Shown here: piece by piece, positions 1,401-9,787 of the stretch
Layout: every line of letters starts with the position of its first letter
How positions within the stretch are numbered: the stretch's first letter is position 1
NCBI GenBank assembly: GCA_010672825.2
Contig: JAAHFU020000006.1
Span: forward strand, 163,549 to 187,548
DNA from: Leptolyngbya sp. SIO1E4
GTDB taxonomy: Bacteria; Cyanobacteriota; Cyanobacteriia; Phormidesmidales; Phormidesmidaceae
DNA: 24,000 bases
Reading direction: 5' to 3'
Program-made: the position numbers and the translations under genes
Notes under the pieces: generated by a model
Seen by the model: only the letters and a program-made list of their open reading frames with translations
What the model was told of the DNA's origin: nothing
The model's database searches: none

Positions 1401-2237
1401 TTAGACGTCTAGCTGTGCTTCGATGACATTGGGACTCAAGTCAATTCGGGTTCCATCAACCTCAATCCAAAGTCTCAAATCCACATGAACAGGGTAATCA
1501 CCACCACTACTGCCCATAACCCCAATAGATTCGCCTTGATGCAATACTTGGCCTGGCTCAACAGAATAACTTTCAGCGTGAGCGAAAGCACCAAATACAG
1601 GGTATTTTCTCCCATCAAGTTCAAAAGCAATATTGAACTTGATGTAGCATCGGTTGCCATAGCCTCTCTCTACAGCTACGTCTATTACCTCACCAGGGTA
1701 GGGAGTTCGAATTTGATGGTCGGATACAACGTAGTCTACTCCTAGGTTTCGGTTGCTAGGCGGAAGTTGGAGAACCTCAGTCGGTCGATCAGAAAACACT
1801 GCATAGGTAGTGGGTTTTGCAGAGTGGCCTTGATCTTCCATAAACCCACCAGTAATTGTGATTTCCCCAAGAACGGGAGAAACCACAGTTGGATAGTTGG
1901 GAAACCACAGTTGGGATTCAGGTAGCTTGAACCCATCAGGGAACAGAGGAATCAACTCATCTGTTGTTTTTTCTTGCTGCTCGCTGGCATAACCTTCCTC
2001 AGTCCGCAATAGATCTTTCCCATTGGTAATTAGTTCGCTGGGTAAAGTTGGCCCAACGGCTTGAGAATGAGGCACAGTATGCGTGAGTCGGTGGAGCCGA
2101 AGGGCATATGCCAGAGCAGCCCCAGAGGAAACTAGGCTAATCACGCTAGCAGCAGGACTCAGCAAAAGTAGTATGCCAAGCAAAGAGACTGGTCTTCTTG
2201 AGCGACGAATTCTCTTCCTATTATTAATCTCTTTCAT
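1401..2237 (-). CDS. LytM/peptidase-M23-like protein with an N-terminal membrane anchor; metal-ligand motifs substituted
   Basis: 278-aa ORF. The N-terminus is basic then hydrophobic (RRSRRPVSLLGILLLLSPAASVISLV). The C-terminal region aligns by eye to the M23 core (GYGNRCYIKF, FAHAES, GESIGVMGSSGG, PVHVDLRLW). The HxxxD position reads NLGVD and the HxH position reads HVD. Confidence 0.7.
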   Translation of the reverse strand: MKEINNRKRIRRSRRPVSLLGILLLLSPAASVISLVSSGAALAYALRLHRLTHTVPHSQAVGPTLPSELITNGKDLLRTEEGYASEQQEKTTDELIPLFPDGFKLPESQLWFPNYPTVVSPVLGEITITGGFMEDQGHSAKPTTYAVFSDRPTEVLQLPPSNRNLGVDYVVSDHQIRTPYPGEVIDVAVERGYGNRCYIKFNIAFELDGRKYPVFGAFAHAESYSVEPGQVLHQGESIGVMGSSGGDYPVHVDLRLWIEVDGTRIDLSPNVIEAQLDV

Positions 2238-2447
2238 TTTTGGCTTTCCTCAATGGAGTAATAGCCAAACCGGTTTGGACAGAAGTGTCGTAGGCGCTGC
2301 GCCCTTAACACCCCCATTAATTCCACAGGTGTCCCTGGCAATATGCCGACCCTCGACAAAGTGCGGCGACAAAATTGCCAGGATTTTCAAAAACTTTCTG
2401 CATTCTTTGCGGAATGGTCGTTTTGGCTTGGTAGCCTGATGCAGGTC

Positions 2448-2485
2448 TTCATTTTGTCGACAGACGACATTTTCATTTTGTCGAC
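2448..2485 (+). promoter_or_regulatory. Two copies of TTCATTTTGTCGAC (2448-2461 and 2472-2485) just upstream of the operon start; candidate operator
   Basis: Exact 14-bp direct repeat, 24 bp start to start. Each copy contains the GTCGAC palindrome. It lies 28-65 bp upstream of the GTG at 2513, in the divergent intergenic region between the M23 gene and the operon. Confidence 0.4.
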
Positions 2486-2512
2486 GGCGATCGCAGGGAT
2501 AGGGGATAGTCA

Positions 2513-3802
2513 GTGCCGCAAGAGAAATATAGGTTTACACCTAGTAAGGCGAAATACCTGAAAGCAATGCTGACCGAGCTTGGGAAGGTTGAGCCTGGTC
2601 TCAAAATCTGTAAGGTAAATGGAACAATTCGCTATGTCGGTCTAGCGGAGTGTATCCAGAGACTTTATGCAGAACTGTCCATCCCTGGTAAACCCATAGG
2701 TAGAGACAGCCTGTCTAAATTGATTGAATGTGATGTGCCCTTTAGAGGCCGAGAGCTTCAGTATTTAATTGATTTTCTAAAAGTCACCAATTTGTTGATC
2801 CAAAAAACTGCTCAAAAAGACCCAAGCTATATTGGCACTCAACTCCGAAGAAAAGGAGTAGTGCAGTTTGTCTTTCCTGAAGAACCTGAAGCTGCTGACT
2901 TTCAAGCATGGTTTGAGGTTGGTTCGGCGGGCTACAAAAAAGGTCGTTCTGAGACATCTAGATCTGTAATCCCAGCCGAAAGGCAAATTGTTCGCCAGAT
3001 AGCTGATGGCTTGTTGGCCATTAACTATTTCGACCAGGAAGCTGGTTGTCGGCAAGCGATCAAGCGTTTGGTGCCTGCCGGTGCATTGCTATGCGGTGCT
3101 CAAGACGATCGCGTTCAGCGCTGGATTGTGAAACGCATTGTGACCTGTTTTGAAACCAGCTATGCCAGCTTAAAGAATGCTAAACGGATAGAATTTTTTG
3201 CCCCTAGTCATCAGATGAATGCTGATTTTCGCTTGTTCTGGGATGACTTAGCCAAACAAATAGGGCTGCAAGAAGCAGATGAGAATCGTGTCATTGAGTC
3301 GATTTATGAACTGCTGAAAACGACTTCACTAGTGATTGCAGTCTATGGCATTGATCGACTTGCAGCCGACAAGCAACGGGACTTTATCGAGGCTTTCTGG
3401 AGCCAAGTGTGTCAAAGATTAGTGCAGGCCAGAGAGCTACGATCGCGCCCTCGGCGTCCAGGCAAGTCGCGTCTTATTTTGCTGATGACAGAGCAAGGAA
3501 AAGAAGGACAACCCCGCCCTTACCGGAGTACCTCGTCGCGGAATACCGAGCACCCTAATATTCCGGTTTTAATTGAGCCGTTAACAGACATTTCTTTGGA
3601 TGATGTGTACAGTTGGCTGGATAATCCGCATATCATTTCGCTAATGACGAAAATTGGGCAAGACCCAGAGGTTGTTTCTGACTTGTTGGAGCAGCGTCAG
3701 GTGCATTCTGAGCCAGCCGTAATGCTGGATGCCCTGTGCTGTGTTTTGAACCTGGAGCGAGGGTTGAATGAAGTGGAGGAGTACTGGAGGCTGGCAGGAT
3801 GA
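2513..3802 (+). CDS. Hypothetical protein with a degenerate (probably inactive) STAND/P-loop-like core; first gene of the MoxR-vWA operon
   Basis: 429-aa ORF with a GTG start preceded by AGGGGA. Its stop overlaps the next start (ATGA at 3799-3802). AGALLCGAQDDRVQRW sits where a Walker A would be but lacks GK[ST]. SLVIAVYGIDRL resembles the NACHT hhhhDGhDE Walker B with the first Asp lost. SRLILLMTEQ follows. Family assignment is by eye only. Confidence 0.65.
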   Translation: MPQEKYRFTPSKAKYLKAMLTELGKVEPGLKICKVNGTIRYVGLAECIQRLYAELSIPGKPIGRDSLSKLIECDVPFRGRELQYLIDFLKVTNLLIQKTAQKDPSYIGTQLRRKGVVQFVFPEEPEAADFQAWFEVGSAGYKKGRSETSRSVIPAERQIVRQIADGLLAINYFDQEAGCRQAIKRLVPAGALLCGAQDDRVQRWIVKRIVTCFETSYASLKNAKRIEFFAPSHQMNADFRLFWDDLAKQIGLQEADENRVIESIYELLKTTSLVIAVYGIDRLAADKQRDFIEAFWSQVCQRLVQARELRSRPRRPGKSRLILLMTEQGKEGQPRPYRSTSSRNTEHPNIPVLIEPLTDISLDDVYSWLDNPHIISLMTKIGQDPEVVSDLLEQRQVHSEPAVMLDALCCVLNLERGLNEVEEYWRLAG

Positions 3803-4869
3803 GTGAGGCTATGCGCTATGAGGGAACGCTGCAGCCGCCTGTTGAGGGTGCCCGGGATACAGAGCTACGTCGGTATTATCCCTATCTACCGGAACCGGGG
3901 TTGGTCGAAGCGGTGAATTTAGCGATTGACCTGCATCGCCCCTTGTTGTTGGAGGGGGAACCAGGCTGTGGCAAGACCCGTTTAGCAGGGGCTGTAGCCT
4001 ACGAGCTGACGCAGAAAGTTCGCCAGGGTACGAAGAAGGGGAATCAAGACTTTTGGTGGCCGTATTTCAGTTGGAATGTGAAATCGACCTCGCGGGTGCG
4101 GGATGGACTATATCGCTATGATGCCGTTAACCGTCTGCGGGATACGCAGATTGTGGGAGCTGATCCAGAGCGGCTGCAGGGCTTCTTAGATGAATCAGAA
4201 GCGGACAAGTTTCAAAAGCTGAGGCAAGAATTGAAGCAAGTTCTGCAGCGGTTGATGGATTGGGAGAAGGCTTATTTTAAGTGGGGGCCGTTGGGCGAAG
4301 CATTGCAATGGCAGAAGAATTATCGACCTATTTTGTTGATCGATGAGATTGACAAAGCCGACAGTGATTTTCCAAATGATCTGTTGCTAGAACTCGAAGA
4401 GTTTCGGTTTGATATTCCTGAGTTGGGTCAGTCGATCACACCGCCCCCAGAGGAACAGGAACCCATCATTTTTATCACCAGTAATCGGGAAAAGCCGCTG
4501 CCCGATCCCTTCCTGCGGCGCTGCGTTTATTACTATGTAGAGTTTCCGCAAAAAGGACACCTGACTGAGATTATTCAGCAGCGTTTTGAGTCTGTAAGCA
4601 AAAACGAAGCCAAGCTGATCAAGCTGGCAGTCGAACAATTTTATGCGATTCGCGAAATCCTAGAACCGCAGCCGGGGAGTCGGCCTCCAGGCACCAGTGA
4701 GTTTTTGGAATTCTTGACGGTGATTCTGCGTCGGGCTAAACGAACCTCGGTTGATGATACGGTCAAGGTTGTGGAGAAACTAGCAGAACATGACTCCCTG
4801 CTCGGCATATTGTTGAAGACGAAGGCCGATCAAGACCTTTACCACGACTACGTGAACCAAGATGATTGA
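3799..4869 (+). CDS. MoxR-type AAA+ ATPase
   Basis: 356-aa ORF. Walker A is LLLEGEPGCGKT (GEPGCGKT at 3955-3978). Walker B is PILLIDEIDKAD, followed by FPNDLLLELEE. The sensor-1 region is IIFITSNRE and the Arg-finger-like motif is LPDPFLRRC. It is translationally coupled on both sides. Confidence 0.85.
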   Translation: MSEAMRYEGTLQPPVEGARDTELRRYYPYLPEPGLVEAVNLAIDLHRPLLLEGEPGCGKTRLAGAVAYELTQKVRQGTKKGNQDFWWPYFSWNVKSTSRVRDGLYRYDAVNRLRDTQIVGADPERLQGFLDESEADKFQKLRQELKQVLQRLMDWEKAYFKWGPLGEALQWQKNYRPILLIDEIDKADSDFPNDLLLELEEFRFDIPELGQSITPPPEEQEPIIFITSNREKPLPDPFLRRCVYYYVEFPQKGHLTEIIQQRFESVSKNEAKLIKLAVEQFYAIREILEPQPGSRPPGTSEFLEFLTVILRRAKRTSVDDTVKVVEKLAEHDSLLGILLKTKADQDLYHDYVNQDD

Positions 4870-6040
4870 CACGCTGCAGCCATATCCTGATGGGCTTTTG
4901 CAGGCAATGTTTGAAGCTCTGCGAGAGGCTGGCTTGGAGCTAACGCTGGATCAGTACAGTTTGCTGCGTCGGGCTGTGCTGCTGGGGTATGGCGGCGGGT
5001 GGGATGATCTGAAGCGGTTGTGTCGTTTGCTATGGGTAAAGCCGAGCAGTCACTATGACGGTGACGTGTTCGATCGCGCTTTTGATGCCTTTGTTGAGCA
5101 ACATCAGCTCGTTCCAGTCAGGGATGACCTATCGCCACAATCAGAACTAATCGAGCCTCCTTTAGTATCTGAGCCGCCATCAGAATCGGCACTAGACCCG
5201 ACGATGAGTGAGCGATCGCTGCCCCAGGTGCCGCCGCGCAAGACGACATCGCAGCAATCTGATGACGCGGGTAAAGTGCCGACTGCCTTTAAGAGCAGCG
5301 ATAGCGTCCCACACATACCTTCTCAATACGCCTTTAAACTAAGACCAACGAGTCTGCCACTGCAAGCAACAACCGTTCCTGCCCAGTGGCAAGCCTTGCG
5401 GCAACCATTGCCAGTGAGTCGCGATGATGAGCTGGATTTATCAGCAACGGTCGATCAGATATTGCAGGAAGGAATCTTTAGTGATGTGGTGCTGCGGCCT
5501 GTGTTGGCGCGTCGGGCGGAACTACTATTGCTAGTGGATGATGCTAGCCCGATGATGCCGTTTCGCCCCGCCTTGCAGCCGCTGATTGATGCGATCACTG
5601 AGGATCGGATTACCCCCGCTCAGATATATCGCTTCACGCGATTTCCCGATGATTATCTTTATGATTGGCAGCGCAGCACGCGGGCGATTCCGATGACGAC
5701 TGTGCTGGAACGGGCGCATCAGAACCGAACGATTGCTCTGATTTGGAGTGACAGCGGTGCGGCTACTGACAGCATTGATGCCATCTATGAAACCAACATG
5801 TATCGCTTTCTGCGGCAGTTGGCGCTGAATGTGCGGGTGCTGTTTTGGCTAAATCCACTGCCTGCTAGCCGCTGGATGGACACCTCGGCTCAGCAGCTAG
5901 CTCGGATGTTAGATGGCCGGATGATGCCTCTGGGACAGGATATGTGGCGTGAGCTGACGCGGCAGATGTTGAATCCGCAGGGCGTTTATTTGCAGCCTTA
6001 CCTCTGTACTGAAAGTGCAGCATTTGAGGAGGTTCTGTGA
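4862..6040 (+). CDS. von Willebrand factor A (vWA)-like protein, partner of the MoxR ATPase
   Basis: 392-aa ORF whose start overlaps the previous stop (ATGATTGA at 4862-4869). It has an N-terminal helical region, a Pro/Ser-rich linker, then a vWA-like core. LLLLVDDASPMM sits at the MIDAS DxSxS position (partly degenerate) and IALIWSDSGAA comes later. Adjacency to a MoxR ATPase supports the call. Confidence 0.6.
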   Translation: MIDTLQPYPDGLLQAMFEALREAGLELTLDQYSLLRRAVLLGYGGGWDDLKRLCRLLWVKPSSHYDGDVFDRAFDAFVEQHQLVPVRDDLSPQSELIEPPLVSEPPSESALDPTMSERSLPQVPPRKTTSQQSDDAGKVPTAFKSSDSVPHIPSQYAFKLRPTSLPLQATTVPAQWQALRQPLPVSRDDELDLSATVDQILQEGIFSDVVLRPVLARRAELLLLVDDASPMMPFRPALQPLIDAITEDRITPAQIYRFTRFPDDYLYDWQRSTRAIPMTTVLERAHQNRTIALIWSDSGAATDSIDAIYETNMYRFLRQLALNVRVLFWLNPLPASRWMDTSAQQLARMLDGRMMPLGQDMWRELTRQMLNPQGVYLQPYLCTESAAFEEVL

Positions 6041-7611
6041 TGATAGCCCCCGTTCAAGACGCTCAGGATTTCTTACAAGTTGATACGTTTCGGAAGCGGT
6101 ATGGTGAAGCGGCTATGCGGTTGGCCTATCACGGAGCCTTTCCGCTGACGCTAACGACCAATCTGCTCTATTGCATCCGCGAAAACTTTGTCCCGGAAGT
6201 GCCCTGGTATGCGGTGGGGGATGTACTGTTATCGGGGTTATGCCGTCAGGTGGGGCACGACCTTTATGAGATGACTGCCGCAACGCGCAGGGGGTTATTA
6301 GAGGGGCTGAAGGATGACTTGGGCGATCAAGCCCAAGCTCGGGTGGAGCGCTTAGAGCAATTTATGTTGGCCTACGTGCAGCAGCGATTGGTCACAGAGA
6401 AGCACTACATCCAACGCATGATTGGGGACAAGCAAGTGTTTCGCTGGACGGCGCTGGCTCCGTTTCGCCCGGAGCAGGAGCTGGTGGAGGTAATTCGCCG
6501 CGATTTGGCCAACCTAGCTGCCAGAGATGATTCTGAGGAACGCTTTTGGTTAGCGCGGTTGGTGAAAAGTCAGGCAGATTGGTTGACGGATTCGGGGTAT
6601 CGAGTACTGTTGCTGGACTGGACGGAGCAAATTGCGGCGACGGGTACAATTGAGCCGAGTGTTGAAGCCGCTGCCAAAACGCTTGCTATTGGCTTGCCTG
6701 TGAAGCCGTTGGACTTTGAGGTGGTGATGCTGCGCCCTGCGGGGGCAACCGATGAGCTACAGCCCTTTGACTTTCAGGTGGTGACGGTCAATGCAAGGGG
6801 TGAGGAACTGACCCGCCAGACCCAGCAAGCGTTTAAGTTTCTGGAACCGTTGGGCGAAACAACACTGCCCCTGGAGATGGTGGCGATTCCTGGCGGTCAG
6901 TTTTTGATGGGTGCCCCCAAGGGTGAAAAAGATGCAATGAAGGCTGAACGCCCACAGCATCAGGTTACGATTACGCCTTTCTTTATGGGGCGAACGCCTG
7001 TGATACATGCTCAATGGCGATTTGTGGCAGGGTTGCCGCAAGTCAGTCAAAAGCTAAACACTGAGCTTGCCCGCTTTAAGAGCAATAACTTACCCATCGA
7101 GCAAGTGTCTTGGGATGATGCGATGGAGTTTTGTGCGCGGTTATCTAACTACACGCAGCGAGACTATCGACTGCCGACCGAGGCGGAGTGGGAATATGCT
7201 TGCCGCGCTGACACGACAACTCCGTTTCACTTTGGCGCGACGATCACGTCGAACTTAGCGAACTATTACGGCTCTGAGGTCTATCAGCAGGAGCCCAAGG
7301 GGGAATATCGTAATAAGACGACTCCCATTGATCATTTTGGGATAGCTAATGCCTTTGGCCTGAGTGACATGCATGGCAATGTATGGGAGTGGTGTTTGGA
7401 TCATTGGCATAGCAACTATAAAGGCGCACCAACAGATGGTAGCGCTTGGGGGACGGACGATAAGGATGCTTATCGCGTCCTACGCGGCGGCTCCTGGGAT
7501 AACTTTCCGAGGTCTTGCCGGTCTGCCTTTCGCTACGTCAATACACGCGTCCACCGCAACGACTTCATCGGTTTTCGTGTTGTGTGCGTTGCCCCGAGGA
7601 CTCTTCCATAA
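6037..7611 (+). CDS. Two-domain protein: unknown N-terminal domain plus C-terminal FGE-sulfatase (SUMF1/C-type-lectin fold) domain; DGR target 1
   Basis: 524-aa ORF with its start overlapping the previous stop (GTGA at 6037-6040; ATG at 6040). Classic FGE-sulfatase motifs are present: FDFQVVTVNARGEE, MVAIPGGQFLMG, YRLPTEAEWEYACRA, GLSDMHGNVWEWCLDHW, RVLRGGSW, GFRVVC. The hypervariable tract lies at the extreme 3' end. Confidence 0.85.
   Translation: MMIAPVQDAQDFLQVDTFRKRYGEAAMRLAYHGAFPLTLTTNLLYCIRENFVPEVPWYAVGDVLLSGLCRQVGHDLYEMTAATRRGLLEGLKDDLGDQAQARVERLEQFMLAYVQQRLVTEKHYIQRMIGDKQVFRWTALAPFRPEQELVEVIRRDLANLAARDDSEERFWLARLVKSQADWLTDSGYRVLLLDWTEQIAATGTIEPSVEAAAKTLAIGLPVKPLDFEVVMLRPAGATDELQPFDFQVVTVNARGEELTRQTQQAFKFLEPLGETTLPLEMVAIPGGQFLMGAPKGEKDAMKAERPQHQVTITPFFMGRTPVIHAQWRFVAGLPQVSQKLNTELARFKSNNLPIEQVSWDDAMEFCARLSNYTQRDYRLPTEAEWEYACRADTTTPFHFGATITSNLANYYGSEVYQQEPKGEYRNKTTPIDHFGIANAFGLSDMHGNVWEWCLDHWHSNYKGAPTDGSAWGTDDKDAYRVLRGGSWDNFPRSCRSAFRYVNTRVHRNDFIGFRVVCVAPRTLP
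7477..7611 (+). repeat. DGR variable region 1 (variable core 7501-7569; may start as early as 7411)
   Basis: Aligned to 9607-9741 (offset 130). There are 24 identical nt (7477-7500), then 21 mismatches in 70 nt, 20 of them at codon positions 1-2. Then come 29 identical nt, GGTTTTCGTGTTGTGTGCGTTGCCCCGAG. Confidence 0.75.
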
Positions 7612-7644: not shown

Positions 7645-7657
7645 GGCGCGAAGCGCC
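7645..7657 (+). promoter_or_regulatory. Conserved GC stem-loop GGCGC-GAA-GCGCC followed by a T-run, downstream of VR1; DGR target-recognition hairpin and/or terminator
   Basis: 5-bp GC stem with a 3-nt loop, followed by TCGAATTTTTTTG. A paralogous copy downstream of VR2 keeps the stem and changes the loop. Confidence 0.45.
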
Positions 7658-7704: not shown

Positions 7705-8043
7705 ATGAACGATCTACCCATCATCCAGAAGACCTATGACTTGATTAAGTGGTATATACCCATTCTCAATAAGCTACCTAAAGAGCATAAGTTTACCTTG
7801 GGTGATCGCATCACCAACAGACTGTACGATTTACTCGAAGGATTGATTCAGGCCCGTTATACCCGCCAGAAACTGCCGCAACTCTATGAACTCAATCTCC
7901 AGCTTGAGCTTTTGCGTCACCAAACTCGGTTGCTGTTGGATTTTGACCTGATGTCCGCCAAACGCTATGCCTACGTTGGTCAGCAAATCAATGGGATTGG
8001 CATCGAACTCGGTGGATGGATTAAGCAGCAGAGAGAAGCATGA
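7705..8043 (+). CDS. avd: Avd-like four-helix-bundle protein (DGR accessory variability determinant)
   Basis: 112-aa ORF. It shows the motif style typical of this family: [45 protein letters not shown]. Its stop overlaps the RT start (ATGA at 8040-8043). Confidence 0.8.
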
Positions 8044-8927
8044 AACGTTACGGCAACTTCTGGCCCGACATTATTGATTTTGAAAACTTGCTGCAGGCGG
8101 CGCGGCAAGCCCAGCGCGGCAAGCGGTATCGCCCGAATGTACTGGCCTTTAACTACAACCTGGATAAGGAACTCCTGCAATTGCAGCGAGAGCTGCAGGA
8201 AAAAACGTATCGACCAGGCAAGTATCGTACTTTCAAAATTGAAGATCCTAAGCCGCGTTTAATTTCAGCCGCACCTTACCGGGACAGAGTCGTCCATCAC
8301 GCCCTGTGCAACATTATTGTGTCGCCCCTCGAACGGACATTCATAACCGATACCTATGCCAATCGTGTTGGGTATGGCACTCACCGCGCTCTGCGTCGAT
8401 TTGTTCACTTCGCTCGCACCAGTCGCTATGTGTTGCAATGTGATGTCCGCAAATACTTTCCTAGCTTGGATCATGTGATTCTCAAAACCATGATTCGACG
8501 CAAAATCAAGTGCCCAGATACCCTTTGGCTAATTGACACGATTATTGATGGCAGCAATCCTCAAGGCGAAACCATTGAGTACTTTCCTGGGGATGATCTG
8601 TTAGCACCCGTGCAACGACGTCGGGGACTTCCGATTGGCAACCTCACCAGCCAGTTCTTTGCCAACCTATATTTGAATGGGTTTGACCATTTTGTTAAAG
8701 AACAGCTCAAATCTCGTAAGTACCTAAGGTATGTTGATGATTTTGCGTGCTTTGCGGACGATCGCTCTTTTCTGGTGGATGCGCGATCGCACATCGAAGC
8801 CTATCTCAAGACCTTGCGACTGCGGCTGCATCCCGTGAAAAGCCAGTTGTTTGAAACTAGGTTTGGCGCTAATTTCGTCGGCTTTCGCGTGCTGCCCGAT
8901 CTCATTCGTGTCCGCAGAGTTTTCTAG
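8040..8927 (+). CDS. DGR-type reverse transcriptase, apparently lacking the C-terminal thumb region
   Basis: 295-aa ORF. RT motifs: [50 protein letters not shown] (8634-8678, DGR hallmark), YVDD (8730-8741), LHPVKSQ and FVGFRV. The ORF stops 8 codons after FVGFRV, where DGR RTs normally continue for tens of residues. Confidence 0.9.
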
Positions 8928-8952
8928 CCCCATCCCCTACTATCCCTTTCCC

Positions 8953-9741
8953 ATGCCTGAATTAGTTGCTCAGCGGGAACGCCGCAAAACGCTTTATGTA
9001 ACTGAACCCCTTGGCTCAAAGTTGGGGTTAGATATAGTGATCATCCCTGGCGGTAGCTTTTTAATGGGGTCTCCTGATGACGATCCTGATAGGCTCAGTA
9101 ACGGTAGTGAAGAACCCCAGTACCTCGTTACAGTGCCTACCTTTTTGATGGGACGTTATCCCGTTACTCAAGCCCAGTGGCAGTTTGTTGCAGGACTGAA
9201 GCAAAAGAAGCGAAAGCTAGATCCCAATCCGGCACATTTCAAAGGTGATGTTCGCCCGGTGGAATCGGTGTCTTGGGACGATGCAGTGGAATTCTGCGAT
9301 CGGCTCTCAATCCATAGTGGACGCGAGTATCGCCTGCCTACTGAAGCCGAATGGGAATATGCCTGCCGTGCTGGCACAACAACGCCTTATCACTTTGGTG
9401 AGAGCATCAACACTAACCTAGCTAACTATAACGGCAAATATAAGGGCACCACTGCTGTTGATCACTTTGGGATTGCCAATGCCTTTGGCCTAAGCGATAT
9501 GCATGGCAATGTATGGGAGTGGTGTTTGGATCATTGGCATGACAGTTATGAAGGAGCACCCACGGATGGTAGTACTTGGGTAAAGGACGGTGAGGATGCT
9601 TATCGAGTCCTACGCGGCGGCTCCTGGGATTGCCTTCCGTGGCATTGCCGGTCTGCCTCTCGCGACGCCTATACGAGCAACTGCCGCACCGACGACTACG
9701 GTTTTCGTGTTGTGTGCGTTGCCCCGAGAACTCTTCCGTAA
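8953..9741 (+). CDS. Stand-alone FGE-sulfatase/C-type-lectin-fold protein; DGR target 2, which looks like a 5'-truncated paralogue of target 1
   Basis: ATG at 8953 gives MPELVAQRERRKTLYVTEPLGSKLGLDIVIIPGGSFLMG... This parallels ...GEELTRQTQQAFKFLEPLGETTLPLEMVAIPGGQFLMG in target 1. It has the same FGE motifs through GFRVVCVAPRTLP. The track ORF begins at a TTG at 8851, overlapping the RT, and would add a signal-peptide-like [22 protein letters not shown]. The start is unresolved. Confidence 0.8.
   Translation: MPELVAQRERRKTLYVTEPLGSKLGLDIVIIPGGSFLMGSPDDDPDRLSNGSEEPQYLVTVPTFLMGRYPVTQAQWQFVAGLKQKKRKLDPNPAHFKGDVRPVESVSWDDAVEFCDRLSIHSGREYRLPTEAEWEYACRAGTTTPYHFGESINTNLANYNGKYKGTTAVDHFGIANAFGLSDMHGNVWEWCLDHWHDSYEGAPTDGSTWVKDGEDAYRVLRGGSWDCLPWHCRSASRDAYTSNCRTDDYGFRVVCVAPRTLP
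9607..9741 (+). repeat. DGR variable region 2 (variable core 9631-9699)
   Basis: Paralogue of 7477-7611. The flanks are identical and the core differs at 21 of 70 positions, with the differences at codon positions 1-2. Confidence 0.75.
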
Positions 9742-9774: not shown

Positions 9775-9787
9775 GGCGCGGAGCGCC
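9775..9787 (+). promoter_or_regulatory. Second copy of the post-VR stem-loop (GGCGC-GGA-GCGCC) followed by a T-run
   Basis: Same position relative to the stop codon as 7645-7657. The stem is conserved and the loop reads GGA instead of GAA. It is followed by TCGAAATTTTTTG. Confidence 0.45.

Follow-up and report, generated by a model that had tools for sequence, protein, structure and literature searches.

In Leptolyngbya sp. SIO1E4 we find what is very probably the remnant of a DGR of the cyanobacterial type with FGE-fold targets, from which one deletion of about 0.5 kb removed the thumb of the reverse transcriptase (RT), the template repeat (TR) and the spacer, leaving the VRs frozen. The locus is a DGR by the clade of its RT, its Avd partner, the fold of its targets, the signature in its VRs and its hairpins; the requirements of a working DGR that fail here are the TR, the spacer and a complete RT. 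The window (by which we mean the whole stretch of 24,000 nucleotides that was analysed) lies on a 344-kb contig, C2, of an 8.22-Mb assembly that comprises 12 contigs and is 99.99% complete. Two relatives in which the corresponding locus is intact served as comparators, namely, L002 (GCA_038533715.1, a "Cyanobacteria bacterium J06559_3"-type MAG, whose RT is P0002) and L016 (GCA_050330755.1, Nodosilinea sp., whose RT is P0003). The ancestral state is inferred from these two, with avd-RT DNA that is only 73 to 82% identical to that of the window; the genomes available from the same genus are MAGs that are 59 to 76% complete and carry different DGR lineages. The features of the locus are as follows.

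6037..7611, + strand: target gene 1, 524 aa, with Pfam PF03781 (FGE-sulfatase) at residues 280-516 (E=3.1e-55)
~7482-7606, + strand: VR1, at the 3' end of target 1, matching the L002 TR
7645..7657, + strand: GC hairpin GGCGC-GAA-GCGCC, folded, -7.5 kcal/mol, z = -2.1
7705..8043, + strand: avd, 112 aa, intact, matching NF033474 and Pfam bAvd
8040..8927, + strand: DGR reverse transcriptase, 295 aa, C-terminally truncated
8915..8916, no strand: deletion junction, from alignment to L002 and L016
8916..8952, + strand: remnant of the spacer 3' end plus the target 2 leader, AGAGTTTTCTAGCCCC..., matching AGAGTTGTCTGGCCCC of L002 and AGAGTTGGCTGG of L016
8953..9741, + strand: target gene 2, 262 aa, with Pfam PF03781 (E=1.3e-53)
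~9612-9736, + strand: VR2, at the 3' end of target 2
9775..9787, + strand: GC hairpin GGCGC-GGA-GCGCC, folded, -7.0 kcal/mol

Target 1 combines an N-terminal domain with a C-terminal FGE-sulfatase/C-type-lectin-fold domain, and target 2 consists of the FGE-sulfatase fold alone. Between target 1 and avd is a gap of 93 nt that contains the first hairpin. The avd product scores 142.9 bits against NF033474 (DivGenRetAVD; cut-off of 80) and matches PF22296 with E=1.8e-21. Its stop codon and the start of the RT gene share an ATGA overlap which, as an earlier reading made from the letters of the window (the sequence-only reading) had pointed out, leaves no room for a TR between the two genes. The same reading had target 2 begin 25 nt after the RT; the 25-nt gap between the RT stop codon (8925-8927) and the target 2 start stands, but the ATG is at 8953-8955 and not at 8955. 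Past the stop codon of each target, at a distance of 34 to 35 nt, is a GGCGC-NNN-GCGCC stem, and alignment and folding indicate that both copies are conserved. We regard them as putative stem-loops of the DGR target-recognition type, and hairpins of this kind also stand beside other VR-like cassettes of the same genome. On its upstream side, target 1 closes an operon (window 2513-7611) with a MoxR-type AAA ATPase (3799-4869; PF07728); the ORF at 4862-6040 gave no match in a Pfam search.

The RT ORF ends early, as had been claimed, and the part that is gone is the thumb. The best match of the protein in the PDB is the Bordetella enzyme, bRT (8ub7; E=4.4e-43), and the alignment covers only residues 3 to 269 of 328, whereas P0002, the 357-aa homologue, can be aligned to bRT up to residue 315 and so across the thumb, which identifies the missing piece. 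The NTE, fingers and palm are retained, together with the I/LGxxxSQ-type motif and YVDD, and the alignment to P0002 ends at residue 292. Thousands of cyanobacterial DGR RTs were recovered from among 5.8 billion proteins; in the best 120 homologues (74 to 89% identical), from which our statistics are drawn, the median length is 369.5 aa (5th to 95th percentile, 352 to 381), compared with 295 aa in the window. At 75 to 89% identity, the window RT has hundreds of counterparts among cyanobacterial DGR RTs, and homologues in this range measure 350 to 390 aa and continue RIRVRNDNLRRAR...SWEAHL.HGDT. Alignment against full-length DGR RTs puts the missing C terminus at about 65 aa: all the full-length homologues run on past ...LPDRIRVR into a thumb of that size (NDNLRRAR...LVQRLQSWEAHL.HGDT...), and the window protein reads ...LPDLIRVR, then RVF and a stop. 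The few homologues of less than 335 aa come from contigs of 1 to 6 kb and end arbitrarily, within or just before the thumb region, without a stop-derived tail. A naturally short RT variant was rejected accordingly, as P0024, P0066, P0006 and P0108, the short homologues, were cut off where their contigs end. The sequence-only reading had seen no thumb-like continuation in any frame downstream, a result that now extends to the entire genome; tblastn with six homologous thumbs found no thumb-coding sequence in any frame of the genome, except for the first 14 residues at the known site, and nothing else rose above noise. This search rules out both a frameshift that would restore a longer RT and a split RT with its thumb encoded elsewhere.

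Both relatives have the intact order target1-avd-RT-TR-spacer-target2, and the window RT is 89% identical to that of L002 and 83% identical to that of L016. In L002, the end of target 1 is followed by avd, the RT gene (357 aa), a noncoding stretch with the TR (1899-2022) and a 271-aa FGE-fold target 2. In L016, the order is TIR, VMAP, MoxR-AAA, an 865-aa FGE-fold target, avd, RT (370 aa), TR (9144-9267), DUF29 and a 261-aa target 2. The TRs of both are AAC-rich and are mismatched to their own VRs at 10 to 14 of 31 A sites, versus 1 to 3 of about 93 other sites; for L002, the two VRs differ from the TR at 10/31 and 12/31 adenines and at 1/93 other positions. The ca. 150 nt that lie 3' of the TR are conserved between the relatives (L002 2023-2175 versus L016 9267-9412; 111 identical positions) and, by analogy with Bordetella, are probably the cyanobacterial DGR spacer RNA that primes cDNA synthesis; no Rfam family for such a spacer RNA matched in the window or in L002.

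The window shares with these relatives a MoxR-operon target with a C-terminal FGE fold, an avd that overlaps the RT gene, a short second FGE-fold target, the VR scaffold RGGSW...CRSA.R...GFRVV and a GC hairpin after each VR. What the relatives possess and the window does not are RTs of the lengths given above, a 124-nt AAC-rich TR and the ca. 150-nt spacer; L016 differs further in having the extra DUF29 gene ahead of target 2. The L016 cassette at 1620-7429 (TIR, VMAP-M1/VMAP-C, MoxR AAA and the 865-aa FGE-fold target) is a vWA-MoxR-associated (VMAP) system, with the DGR target as its sensor end.

Window positions 8840-8915 align with positions 1520-1595 of L002, and window positions 8916-8934 align with positions 2154-2172, where the conserved spacer finishes; the window has no equivalent of the 558 nt of L002 in between. 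L016 agrees on the breakpoints (8877 and ~9389), with ca. 511 nt missing by comparison. The junction, 8915|8916, is fixed to within 1 nt, an A being common to both sides. On its left is RT codon 292 (...IRVR), and on its right are the last ca. 20 nt of the post-TR spacer (8916-8934), which are all that is left in the window of this conserved element; the last three RT codons and the stop (RVF*) come from this spacer-derived flank. The lost DNA thus comprises about 65 RT codons (the thumb), the gap between RT and TR, the whole TR and nearly all of the spacer. Because the flanks have only CCG-N-A in common as microhomology, the sequence of the junction points to illegitimate recombination or slippage rather than to a repeat-mediated event.

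The junction, as read from the assembly, had no exact match in the metagenome and genome collections searched, the avd and target 2 proteins were found on none of the other public contigs searched, and the 295-aa RT is on record from this assembly only. All of this would agree with an assembly or consensus artefact, or with a deletion carried by part of the sequenced population, such that the organism (or most of its cells) has an intact RT-TR segment. We consider this improbable. Both breakpoints fall within unique sequence (RT codon 292 and the spacer end) and not in the TR/VR repeats where assemblers collapse, which argues against assembly collapse; moreover, a TR-VR collapse would produce another junction, the contig is 344 kb long in an assembly of only 12, nearly complete, and the reading frame closes neatly 3 codons past the junction.

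A single deletion had been proposed to explain a truncated RT, a missing TR and a second target deprived of its N-terminal part. The thumb and the TR were indeed lost at one junction, as judged against both L002 and L016, but the 5' part of target 2 was not taken. On the right, the deletion stops about 38 nt short of the target 2 ATG, and the alignment of target 2 with the complete L002 protein begins at the first Met, where MPELVAQRERRKTLYVTEPLGSKLGLD pairs with MSKLTLQKTKKQVRYFTEPLTPEVGLD. Both second-target orthologues (271 aa in L002 and 261 aa in L016) start at the position aligned with MPELVAQR... of the window. An N-terminal truncation of target 2 is ruled out by this orthologue alignment and by the naturally short second targets of L002 and L016. 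The ORF listed from 8851 is the target 2 frame read back over the 3' end of the RT gene, and the resemblance of target 2 to the linker of target 1 would reflect the paralogy of FGE modules, not a break.

The earlier failure to find a TR copy in the 24 kb holds for the window and for the genome as a whole: the TR is absent from the 8.2-Mb assembly by all types of search. These comprised blastn with both VRs, blastn with the TR-plus-spacer segment of L002, fuzzy searches with the VR flanks (17- to 18-mers) and a six-frame scan for AAY-rich stretches of 30 codons; apart from VR1 and VR2, all that they matched were 3' ends belonging to other FGE-fold genes. A remote TR was rejected on the basis of the negative blastn, fuzzy-flank and AAY-codon scans, the lone Asn-rich match (C11:881766) being the VR that ends a long target ORF. 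A TR in an unassembled gap between the 12 contigs is a formal possibility, although the assembly is 99.99% complete. No other DGR RT is present in the genome; the sole other RVT_1 gene, on C12, is of the retron type, and a second RT acting in trans was rejected on that ground. This gene (C12:244017-245117) encodes a 364-aa protein that matches the TIR anti-phage retron RT and the Ec67 family best in NCBIfam, in each case with a score under the equivalog cut-off.

The VRs themselves record past activity. With the L002 TR as a proxy, VR1 and VR2 differ from each other at 17 of 31 TR-A sites versus 5 of 94 other sites (Fisher p = 9e-9), and VR1 is 82% identical to this TR over 125 nt, with mismatches at 15/31 TR-A sites and 7/94 others. 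Each of the few "non-A" VR differences could be accounted for by an adenine in the lost TR of this lineage itself. In the interval 7498-7570, 20 of the 21 differences between VR1 and VR2 fall at codon positions 1 and 2. The flanks of the VR core are nearly identical in the two targets (29 of 30 positions in 7468-7497, compared with 22 to 23 of 30 in gene parts further upstream), which is the expected result if both VRs were overwritten from one TR. The DGR would, then, have served both targets until fairly recently, and either the deletion is young or the remainder of the locus is still under constraint. Of the two, we favor the former; the 291 surviving RT codons contain no stops and deviate at only 2 of the 143 columns that are at least 95% conserved (family median, 1; maximum, 5), and since they show no excess of damaging changes, the deletion is probably recent.

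We propose that an ancestral locus with the order target1(VR1)-avd-RT-TR-spacer-target2(VR2) suffered one illegitimate deletion of ca. 0.5 kb (8915|8916), which would have taken the last ca. 65 RT codons, the entire TR and almost all of the priming spacer RNA. Mutagenic retrohoming would have been lost with them, and VR1 and VR2 would have been frozen at their last diversified states, with both targets and avd left intact and target 2 sitting 25 nt behind a shortened RT ORF. In bRT-Avd-RNA structures from Bordetella, the thumb is seen in contact with the template:primer duplex, and reverse transcription primed in cis depends on the "Thumb Ring" and on the stem of the spacer that binds bRT, as well as on the spacer RNA 3' of the TR (bioRxiv 10.1101/2023.10.23.563531). 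By analogy with the Bordetella structure, a thumbless DGR RT would be inactive. Because the template, the priming spacer and the thumb are all missing, with no replacement in the genome, the locus presumably cannot make TR cDNA. That the VRs are frozen had been suggested from the sequence, and a genome without a TR should indeed be unable to rewrite them.

The same deletion might have been selected rather than neutral, the removal of the diversifier serving to keep useful specificities of the lectin-fold pair locked. Only the mutagenic core is lost, with the two targets, avd and the hairpin of each VR all intact, and the genome contains many orphan VR-like FGE genes as well as a second DGR remnant (described below), all of which one might expect from such locking. 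However, selection and drift give the same picture, a recent neutral deletion predicts it equally well, and the event is seen in a single genome only; we judge selection to be highly unlikely as the cause. Slightly less far-fetched, albeit still quite improbable, is a wider speculation: either selected locking fixed the ligand specificities of a MoxR-operon sensor beside conjugation-type genes, with Avd and the thumbless RT being kept, or the pair of Avd and thumbless RT retains an RNA-binding role. Selected locking, if true, would mean that the host removed the mutagenic core and kept both diversified lectin-fold proteins. Finally, the notion that the DGR is still active, its short RT being a functional natural variant that uses a remote TR (an alternative that the sequence-only reading had left standing), has almost no chance of being correct and is already largely refuted, for although avd and the fingers and palm of the RT are undamaged and well conserved and both VRs bear a clear diversification signature, there is no TR-like sequence in 8.2 Mb, this is not a natural end point for any of the 120 closest homologues, the priming spacer RNA has been lost too, and the TR of the relatives falls exactly in the missing interval.

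Read as a DGR disabled by a single deletion, the locus is a case of ordinary retroelement decay, a phenomenon that is already known and is well resolved here. Previous reports from cyanobacteria include degraded DGR cassettes and orphan variable proteins, among them an RT-only remnant in Anabaena sp. 90 and Nostoc all3226, which has remnant TR-VR homology (Vallota-Eastman et al. 2020, PMC7517822). As in those cases, the DGR core is partly lost and variable-protein genes persist; unlike in those cases, the deletion, its breakpoints and the prior architecture can be reconstructed from relatives, and both targets lie beside the remnant. The locus likewise resembles the DGR of Bordetella phage BPP-1 (mtd-avd-TR-brt; 8ub7 and following) in its RT clade, its Avd partner, a C-terminal VR in a lectin-type fold and a post-VR hairpin. 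The two differ in gene order (the TR is downstream of the RT in the cyanobacterial relatives) and in their targets; that of BPP-1 is Mtd, whereas the window has two targets, both of the FGE-sulfatase fold, and its thumb, TR and spacer are deleted.

A second DGR remnant is found in the same genome at C11:880500-882633. It consists of a target 1 paralogue (with the same N-terminal domain, the FGE fold and an Asn-rich VR, ...CRNNNNPGFRYVVIGFRVV) followed by an avd stub of about 60 of the 112 residues (57% identical), and directly next to the stub, on the opposite strand, is a C-terminal piece of an IS21 helper ATPase (IstB); this remnant contains no RT and no TR. At least eight further FGE genes have VR-like 3' ends (C1:1580483; C7:9314, 10282 and 11199; C4:413565; and C2:255490-265840, where three copies lie on the minus strand), and at least three of these ends (C1, C7:11199 and C4:413565) are followed by a DGR-style GC hairpin, e.g., GGCGCGGAGCGCC at C1. 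Because they differ from the L002 TR at 14 to 28 of 94 non-A sites, these ends are not targets of the TR of this element; no cognate TR or RT for them was found in the genome. Outside this genome, in L014 (G003:C54, from the same genus), only RT residues ~291-350 (the thumb, 65% identical) are left at 4914-5093 on the minus strand, inverted between FGE-fold targets. This thumb fragment adjoins a 50-nt spacer piece on the other strand, forming a mirror-image remnant, and it is probably a coincidence that the L014 break lies within a few codons of the breakpoint in the window.

For annotation purposes, the appropriate label is that of a DGR remnant in which the RT gene is a truncated pseudogene, the TR is missing and both targets, once diversified, are intact; surveys should not include the locus among active DGRs. 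With its breakpoints resolved to the base and two undamaged comparators, it provides a clean case of a DGR that was switched off while its targets persist. The second remnant and the many orphan VR-like genes, in a genome without any TR, fit a picture in which cyanobacteria repeatedly acquire, use and discard diversifiers.
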